769 nt of DNA from Escherichia coli (GCF_003334765.1 NZ_QOWT01000101.1); one strand, 5' to 3'. Positions 1 through 769 are shown, counted from the stretch's first letter. The notes: generated by a model from the sequence alone, not told the origin. Made by a program: numbers and translations.

Positions 1-1
1 A

Positions 2-24
2 GGTGATGCTGCCAACTTACTGAT
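2..24 (+). repeat. IS1 left terminal inverted repeat (IRL)
   Basis: Sequence ggtgatgctgccaacttactgat. The reverse complement of 747..769 is ggtaatgactccaacttattgat, matching at 18 of 23 positions (mismatches at IR positions 4, 8, 9, 10, 19). Confidence 0.9.
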
Positions 25-25
25 T
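12..25 (-). promoter_or_regulatory. IHF-binding consensus-like site in the left end of IS1 (minus strand)
   Basis: The reverse complement of 12..25 reads aatcagtaagttgg, i.e. WATCAGnnnnTTR, with one mismatch to the IHF consensus. It is positioned symmetrically to the right-end site. Confidence 0.5.
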
Positions 26-30
26 TAGTG

Positions 31-36
31 TATGAT
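31..36 (+). promoter_or_regulatory. Candidate -10 hexamer (TATGAT) of the insA promoter, just inside the left end
   Basis: tatgat at 31..36 (5/6 match to TATAAT), about 20 nt upstream of the GTG start. The best -35 candidate, ctgcca at 9..14 (4/6 to TTGACA, 16 bp spacer), lies inside IRL. This agrees with the known placement of the IS1 promoter in IRL, where InsA binds and autorepresses. The exact hexamers are my inference. Confidence 0.5.
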
Positions 37-45
37 GGTGTTTTT

Positions 46-49
46 GAGG
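46..49 (+). promoter_or_regulatory. Shine-Dalgarno-like motif for insA
   Basis: GAGG at 46..49, 7 nt upstream of GTG 57. Confidence 0.5.
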
Positions 50-56
50 TGCTCCA

Positions 57-332
57 GTGGCTTCTGTTTCTATCAGCTGTCCCTCCTGTTCAGCTACTGA
101 CGGGGTGGTGCGTAACGGCAAAAGCACCGCCGGACATCAGCGCTATCTCTGCTCTCACTGCCGTAAAACATGGCAACTGCAGTTCACTTACACCGCTTCT
201 CAACCCGGTACGCACCAGAAAATCATTGATATGGCCATGAATGGCGTTGGATGCCGGGCAACTGCCCGCATTATGGGCGTTGGCCTCAACACGATTTTAC
301 GTCACTTAAAAAACTCAGGCCGCAGTCGGTAA
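57..332 (+). CDS. insA: InsA, the IS1 DNA-binding protein and transcriptional repressor (91 aa), with GTG start
   Basis: ORF of 91 aa ([18 protein letters not shown]...[11 protein letters not shown]) starting at GTG 57 and ending at TAA 330..332. A GAGG Shine-Dalgarno-like motif at 46..49 sits 7 nt upstream of the start. The N-terminus has a C-x2-C...C-x2-C cysteine motif (codons at 78..89 and 150..161) and a C-terminal helix-turn-helix-like segment. The protein matches IS1 InsA from memory. Confidence 0.95.
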
Positions 333-754
333 CCTCGCGCATACAGCCGGGCAGTGACGTCATCGTCTGCGCGGAAATGGACGAACAGTGGGGCTATGTC
401 GGGGCTAAATCGCGCCAGCGCTGGCTGTTTTACGCGTATGACAGTCTCCGGAAGACGGTTGTTGCGCACGTATTCGGTGAACGCACTATGGCGACGCTGG
501 GGCGTCTTATGAGCCTGCTGTCACCCTTTGACGTGGTGATATGGATGACGGATGACTGGCCGCTGTATGAATCCCGCCTGAAGGGAAAGCTGCACGTAAT
601 CAGCAAGCGATATACGCAGCGAATTGAGCGGCATAACCTGAATCTGAGGCAGCACCTGGCACGGCTGGGACGGAAGTCGCTGTCGTTCTCAAAATCGGTG
701 GAGCTGCATGACAAAGTCATCGGGCATTATCTGAACATAAAACACTATCAATAA
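57..754 (+). CDS. insAB: InsAB' transposase made by programmed -1 ribosomal frameshift (insA codons 1-85, 57..311, then the B' frame 311..751; predicted 232 aa)
   Basis: An A6C motif at 308..314 sits in the insA/insB overlap. In the insA frame the codons are tta-aaa-aac; slipping the Lys codon 309..311 back by one base to 308..310 continues as aaa(311..313)-ctc-agg-ccg-cag = K-L-R-P-Q, which joins the InsB sequence. The arithmetic gives 85 + 147 = 232 aa, consistent with the known IS1 frameshift mechanism. Confidence 0.85.
251..754 (+). CDS. insB: InsB / B' frame of the IS1 transposase (167 aa counted from ATG 251); mainly expressed as the C-terminal part of the InsAB' fusion
   Basis: ORF in the -1 frame relative to insA, running from ATG 251 to TAA 752..754. 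The frame is open from 230 (upstream in-frame stop TGA at 227..229). The translation ([25 protein letters not shown]...HYLNIKHYQ) matches IS1 InsB as recalled, except Asp at residue 102 where I recall Gly. Confidence 0.9.
308..314 (+). other. A6C slippery heptamer (AAAAAAC), the programmed -1 frameshift site
   Basis: Sequence aaaaaac at 308..314, 16 nt upstream of the insA stop codon (330..332) and inside the insA/insB' overlap. The frame relationship between insA (phase 0) and insB (phase -1) is exactly as required. Confidence 0.9.
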
Positions 755-758
755 GTTG
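746..758 (+). promoter_or_regulatory. IHF-binding consensus in the right end of IS1
   Basis: tatcaataagttg at 746..758 matches the IHF consensus WATCAAnnnnTTR at every specified position. IHF binding to IS1 ends is described in the literature (recalled, not verified). Confidence 0.6.
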
Positions 759-769
759 GAGTCATTACC
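747..769 (-). repeat. IS1 right terminal inverted repeat (IRR)
   Basis: Inverted-repeat partner of 2..24 (18/23 identity). It overlaps the insB stop codon (752..754), as in IS1. Confidence 0.9.

Follow-up and report, generated by a model that had tools for sequence, protein, structure and literature searches.

A complete IS1A-type IS1 element from Escherichia coli with a rare but recurrent missense allele in its transposase gene

The locus examined here raises the question of whether an insertion sequence that appears intact in each of its visible parts can also be taken to encode a working transposase. The DNA concerned is a 769-nucleotide stretch from Escherichia coli (GCF_003334765.1, NZ_QOWT01000101.1), referred to throughout as the window, and an earlier note made from its sequence had described it as a complete and intact IS1, a known element of low interest that looks transposition-competent. 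Caution is warranted on the last point, since a copy that is intact by eye is not necessarily identical to the active consensus, and this one carries a missense change beside a catalytic residue.

The element occupies positions 2-769 of the window (768 bp). Base 1, an A, lies outside it and is the sole flank, on the left, alignments with IS1A copies beginning at window position 2; there is no flank on the right. A source made up of an element and one base is what would be seen if a short-read assembly had collapsed a repeat into one contig, or if an annotated feature had been excised, and its genomic context has been lost. When complete E. coli genomes were searched by megablast, IS1 was found in 4,970 of 5,426 genomes, at 74,869 places (a median of 11 per genome), and window positions 1-769 were covered at 99.9% by thousands of IS1A-family copies. 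Matching copies bear the RefSeq label "IS1-like element IS1A family transposase" with the remark "programmed frameshift", and end-to-end matches of 99.9% were also present in PLSDB on plasmids of Escherichia, Klebsiella, Salmonella and others. The alignment is collinear and ungapped over 768 of 768 positions, with one mismatch to the commonest copy and two to the IS1A copy of K-12. Full-length alignment to IS1A copies of K-12 and other E. coli places the element firmly within the IS1 family, and the ungapped alignment, together with the score of the fusion protein above its NCBIfam cut-off (see below), bears out the description of an element that is neither truncated nor rearranged. The assessment of a known element of low interest is likewise right. 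No Rfam family matched the window at E values up to 1.

We consider it very probable that positions 2-769 represent an IS1 insertion sequence that is complete and of the IS1A type, and the same confidence attaches to the explanation developed here as a whole. What is present is an ordinary and known element, a complete IS1A-type IS1 whose missense allele is rare yet recurs. More than 90% of complete E. coli genomes contain IS1, a textbook element, and the significance of this copy beyond annotation is small; like any copy of IS1, it points to a place in its replicon at which insertion, deletion, gene activation or IS-mediated recombination is possible.

The ends of the element are those of the K-12 IS1A copy. 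The left terminal inverted repeat (IRL, 2-24, plus strand) pairs with the right (IRR, 747-769, plus strand), and both are the same as in K-12 IS1A; the arms are 23 nt long and imperfect, with 18 of 23 positions complementary (78%). Each end also holds a predicted IHF site that matches the consensus WATCARNNNNTTR exactly, namely AATCAGTAAGTTG on the minus strand at 13-25 and TATCAATAAGTTG on the plus strand at 746-758. These are the only two matches in the window, one per end, against an expectation of 0.06, and two matches occurred in none of 200 shuffled sequences. A promoter-like site on the plus strand (9-36) overlaps IRL and consists of a -35 element CTGCCA (9-14), a spacer of 16 nt and a -10 element TATGAT (31-36), with 9 of 12 matches to the sigma-70 consensus. 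In the promoter and terminator scan this was the one sigma-70-like match in the window where 0.8 would be expected from shuffles, so that the match is not above chance by itself. We read the site as a promoter because the stretch equals, base for base, that of K-12 IS1A, which is experimentally active (PMC12428005), and the promoter PIS1 has been described as partly overlapping IRL (PMC12903888, Fig. 1 legend). Thus the terminal inverted repeats, the IHF sites and the promoter sequence claimed in the earlier note are all in place, though for the promoter it is the identity with K-12 IS1A, not the scan, that sustains the claim.

Between these ends, both reading frames are free of internal stops and the slippery site is present, again as had been reported. 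The insA gene (57-332, plus strand) begins with GTG and encodes a protein of 91 aa with a zinc ribbon (Zn_ribbon_InsA, residues 1-36) and a helix-turn-helix domain (HTH_Tnp_IS1, residues 43-86), the repressor of PIS1; its coordinates agree with those of +56 to +331 given for IS1 (PMC12428005). The insB' frame (230-754, plus strand) is open from 230 and encodes the DDE catalytic domain, matching the full Pfam model DDE_Tnp_IS1 with E = 4e-78, and the insB ORF (251-754) starts with ATG, encodes 167 aa and ends with a TAA stop at 752-754. The A6C motif associated with programmed -1 ribosomal frameshifting lies at 308-314 on the plus strand: TTAAAAAACTC begins at 306, the run of six A occupies 308-313 and the C follows at 314, and in reference copies RefSeq places its "programmed frameshift" at the identical site. 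A -1 slip on A6C would yield the transframe gene insAB' (57-754, plus strand, with 57-311 joined to 311-754), encoding a transposase of 232 aa. Compared with the NCBIfam equivalog model NF033558 (transpos_IS1), this fusion obtains a score of 243.8 bits, where the cut-off is 100, and the match spans model positions 1-199 of 199. On the same model InsA alone reaches 91.3 bits, below the cut-off, and InsB alone 144.3, as expected for a split gene. The Pfam domains of the fusion are Zn_ribbon_InsA, HTH_Tnp_IS1 and DDE_Tnp_IS1 (PF03811, PF12759 and PF03400). From its identity with the copies that have been studied, we infer that this copy would frameshift in the same manner. The RNA 3' of the slippery site (window 300-420) folded no better than shuffled sequences when nested folding was considered (z of +0.70), and nested folding therefore lends no support to a stimulatory structure. 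On the minus strand, a 96-aa ORF runs antisense to insB at 430-720, which we take to be among the non-essential ORFs historically noted in IS1.

On the established biology of IS1, drawn in part from two papers (PMC12428005, PMC12903888), an element of this layout would be expected to behave as follows. A weak promoter lying partly inside the left inverted repeat would transcribe insA and insB'. Normal translation would then give InsA, which through its zinc ribbon and helix-turn-helix would bind both ends and repress PIS1, while a rare -1 slip of the ribosome on A6C (308-314) would join the DNA-binding part of InsA to the insB' frame, with the 232-aa DDE transposase InsAB' (catalytic residues D109, D166 and E191) as its product. 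InsAB', with IHF bound in both ends, would carry out mainly replicative transposition with target duplications of 8-9 bp, and would strongly prefer to act in cis.

It is in the catalytic domain that the window departs from the common element. Compared with K-12 IS1A, the window differs at positions 263 and 555 only, and because the former is synonymous in the insA/InsAB' frame, InsAB' differs from the K-12 consensus transposase by G167D alone. The change at 555 is also the sole difference from the commonest E. coli IS1A copy, and it is non-synonymous: the codon at 554-556 (plus strand) reads GAC (Asp) in place of the GGC (Gly) of common IS1A, which corresponds to G167D in InsAB' and G102D in InsB. 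Residue 167 stands immediately after D166, the second catalytic aspartate.

The three catalytic residues themselves are all present, and each is invariant among 23 full-length IS1-family transposases. The first aspartate (InsAB' D109, InsB D44; codon 380-382) comes immediately after strand beta1 in an AlphaFold2 model of the fusion protein, the second (InsAB' D166, InsB D101; codon 551-553) immediately after beta4, and the glutamate (InsAB' E191, InsB E126; codon 626-628) on a long helix formed by residues 184-207, all three codons being on the plus strand. The model has a mean pLDDT of 79.4, and its strands and helices follow one another as in an RNase H-like fold. With the triad placed after beta1, after beta4 and on the helix that follows, InsAB' is predicted to belong to the DDE transposases of the RNase H-fold superfamily. 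The spacing from D166 to E191 is 24 residues, and for IS1 this Asp-Glu spacing was reportedly described by Ohta et al. in 2002 as unusually short when set against other DDE families. No solved structure of an IS1-family protein was detectable by sequence, and InsAB' has no detectable sequence similarity to any solved chain, DDE transposases and retroviral integrases included (ISCth4 of the IS256 family, 6xg8, and the MMTV, ASV and foamy virus integrase cores). Some IS1-family sequences depart from the triad: two 137-aa fragments (P0258 and P0270) carry Glu where the second catalytic Asp would stand (MTEAW), and at the same position P0129 has Gly (RTGGW) and P0116 has Asn (MTNGW). These four are probably decayed copies.

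A change that adjoins an invariant catalytic residue makes it reasonable to ask whether the window holds an IS1 that is intact and yet non-autonomous, G167D crippling catalysis (for example by setting a second carboxylate beside the metal-binding D166) and the copy persisting as a fixed relic that moves only when another IS1 provides InsAB' in trans, or whose allele spreads by recombination between copies. We consider this account unlikely, and the behaviour of residue 167 across the family bears on it from both directions. Among IS1 proteins of at least 70% identity, 82 of 83 have Gly at this position, the rare variant being the exception. In the 23 full-length transposases, by contrast, residue 167 falls short of 90% conservation, whereas D109, D166 and E191 are invariant. 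A comparison of InsB with 15 relatives (36-56% identity) finds T100, Y106, K119, E126 and L130 invariant and D44, D101 and W103 conserved at 90% or more. Residue 102 varies in the same set: six relatives, all metagenomic, have D, three have A, three G, two S and one K. A wider search for relatives returned 31 proteins from the ISEic1-like group of enterobacteria with A at residue 167 and one protein with T. The distant relatives with a TDDW motif that were found first are singletons and uninformative, and it was a second search that gave examples with many members. Asp occurs at residue 167 in full-length, three-domain transposases of Endozoicomonas (P0193 and P0218) and Xenorhabdus budapestensis (P0271, with 79 member sequences), as well as in a further isoform of IS1 (P0234, with 101 member sequences) that shares 94% identity with the window, and TDDW is present in full-length relatives. 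That Asp is natural at a variable column, in full-length transposases with many members, tells against a crippled enzyme. Position 167 is apparently tolerant, a small and testable point on the structure and function of the IS1 transposase.

It may be asked, more simply, whether the base at 555 is real. Were it an error of sequencing or assembly, or the consensus of a collapsed repeat, the true element would be an ordinary IS1A, and there are features of the record that could be so construed. The source, at 769 bases, is as long as would be expected of an excised feature or of an IS repeat collapsed into one contig; a full-length match of 100% to the window was absent from the roughly 75,000 IS1 places of the 5,426 complete E. 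coli genomes and from the PLSDB plasmids; and the exact 143-base pattern spanning 445T and 555A had no match in species-representative genomes. Set against this is the recurrence of the allele in material of other origin. A 51-mer centred on 555A, a design that makes megablast seeding on ordinary IS1 copies impossible, was found exactly in 63 of the 5,426 complete E. coli genomes, each finished independently, and on one plasmid, with a median of 1 and a maximum of 3 places per genome. Another 7 public contigs moreover encode an InsB identical to that of the window; one of the contigs retrieved, from a human gut metagenome (L018), is identical to window 189-769, and another (L014) is one synonymous base apart from the whole element. 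Since it recurs in finished genomes and contigs alike, the 555A allele is real in nature, and we regard an artefact in the window as highly improbable.

The 555A copies that were fetched occupy at least 10 distinct insertion sites, including a tRNA-Phe island, hlyE, an anion-permease gene, a prophage, a site beside mchS3, the interval between chiP and chiQ, a pAA plasmid and at least three others; in FORC_069 the allele is present in two IS1 copies, each inserted at its own site. Perfect 9-bp target duplications (CTCATTAAG, AACAGCGGC and GGAATTTGC) flank the element at three sites, which are hlyE (L007), the site beside mchS3 (L010 and L021) and that between chiP and chiQ (L022). From these duplications it follows that elements with 555A were inserted by transposition, the source of the enzyme being either cis or trans. 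Three different insertions with perfect duplications count against a non-autonomous element, as does the marking by RefSeq of most 555A copies as intact transposase genes and not as pseudogenes. The duplications would also be accounted for, alternatively, by mobilisation in trans or by gene conversion that brought 555A into IS1 copies already in place, and the mosaics described below show that such recombination occurs.

Two of the sites are of some interest in themselves. In E. coli strain 127 (NZ_CP023377.1, about 2761325-2762092) the 555A element splits hlyE, the gene for hemolysin E, with the duplication CTCATTAAG on either side. On the O104:H4 aggregative-adherence plasmid pAA-09EL71 (L006; NC_018662.1, about 22494-23263) the 555A IS1 is annotated as frameshifted and is bordered by two truncated genes, traI and one with a PAS domain, the transfer region being disrupted there.

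The commonest 555A copy occupies one fixed site in the tRNA-Phe island, some 350 bp past the integrase gene, in O104:H4, 042, E24377A, 300709 and FORC_069 (positions 2473-3240 in loci L003-L005 and 973-1740 in L011 and L020), and its flanks (...GGGAACA on one side and CCCTCTCTG... on the other) contain no 9-bp duplication. This suggests either an insertion of some age or a deletion or rearrangement mediated by IS1. On its tRNA side the copy of 042 is neighboured by dicD and not by yqgA, and the island of that strain therefore lies at another tRNA-Phe locus. That the most widespread 555A copy stands at a single site and lacks a duplication would be in keeping with an element unable to move by itself, as would the rarity of the variant, which is mostly present in a single copy per genome. 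Being rare and typically found once per genome, against a median of 11 for IS1 as a whole, 555A gives no sign of a burst within any genome.

The backgrounds in which the allele is found are varied. The base at 445 may be either of two in 555A copies, and around 555A there are mosaics in which two blocks, one at 5-104 with about 17 differences and one at 621-751 with 5-6, occur in varied combinations (L007, L008, L012, L013, L022 and L023). Such blocks indicate recombination or gene conversion between IS1 isoforms, and the presence of 555A in several backgrounds and mosaics marks it as an old allele that recombination has passed from one IS1 copy to another. Recombination between copies is also a route by which a defective allele could spread, and the mosaic backgrounds are to that extent compatible with a non-autonomous element. 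In two of the loci (L012, 9085-9782, and L015, 4182-5040) a second IS1 lies in opposite orientation about 3.6-4.3 kb downstream of the 555A copy, with a gene for an IS5-like (DDE_Tnp_1) transposase and a DUF4158 gene between the two; this inverted pair could be a composite structure.

What is known of other IS1 copies cautions against reading too much into near-identity. In K-12, the consensus copies IS1A and IS1E give rise to nearly all IS1 transposition, and IS1B, IS1C and IS1D, with only 9 mismatches, transpose at an extremely low frequency (PMC12428005); since copies with 9 mismatches are almost inactive, a few changes can matter, and this precedent adds weight to the possibility that G167D has disabled its enzyme. 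A means of movement for a disabled copy also exists, as InsAB' can mobilise DNA flanked by IRL and IRR in trans, though this action is about 25-fold weaker than that in cis (PMC12903888). Because both of its ends are intact, the copy in the window should be open to mobilisation in trans by other IS1 elements whatever the state of its own transposase.

A search of the full-text literature on mutagenesis of IS1 and InsAB' returned no paper on residue 167, and we know of no experiment on G167D. Taking the foregoing evidence together, we nonetheless judge the G167D change to be probably harmless, and we think it likely that the G167D transposase is itself active and the copy hence autonomous. G555A had at one stage been entertained as an inactivating lesion of the active site, and was dropped as a lead because the column is variable and often Asp and because 555A copies with perfect duplications exist. 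As for the earlier statement that the copy looks transposition-competent, competence is still the likelier reading given the variability of residue 167 and the duplications around 555A copies; that statement had been made with G555A unnoticed, and the competence it asserted was deduced from the visible parts of the element.

A further reading is that G167D is a natural functional variant, neither neutral nor dead, the extra carboxylate by D166 measurably altering the activity of the enzyme (for example by making transposition more or less frequent, or by shifting its preference for metal or target). We consider this decidedly improbable. If true, it could explain how an allele may be old, recombined and present at many sites, and yet never have been amplified within a genome. 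An autonomous element with a harmless substitution remains the account that we favour.

In comparison with known copies, the element is closest to the commonest IS1A-family copy (WP_094096600.1, e.g. NZ_CP023820.1, 3376186-3376953), with which it shares 767 of 768 bases, 263T among them, and from which it differs by G555A only. The IS1A and IS1E copies of K-12 (IS1A at 19796-20563 of MG1655, NC_000913.3) are experimentally active (PMC12428005) and have 766 of 768 bases, the length, the ends, insA, the A6C motif and the gene layout in common with the window. The window departs from them in having T in place of A at 263, a difference that is silent for the transposase but turns Ser5 of the stand-alone insB ORF into Cys, and A in place of G at 555, the G167D change of InsAB'. 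Copies encoding WP_225391574.1, which include those of the tRNA-Phe island in O104:H4, 042 and E24377A and those adjacent to mchS3 in NCCP15648 and FORC_069, carry the same G555A and hence the same G167D, but all have 445G (S65R in InsB, S130R in InsAB'), which the window does not; the copy adjacent to mchS3 is a single base from the window, and the copies in the tRNA-Phe island have 1-3 changes more. At a greater distance, the ISEic1-like and other IS1-family elements of Edwardsiella, Serratia, Plesiomonas, Xenorhabdus and Endozoicomonas are only 47-60% identical and have A (the ISEic1 group) or D (Xenorhabdus and Endozoicomonas) as the residue after the second aspartate, yet they share with the window the same zinc ribbon, helix-turn-helix and DDE_Tnp_IS1 domains, the invariant D-D-E triad, and the motif T-D-x-W-x-x-Y around the second of its aspartates.
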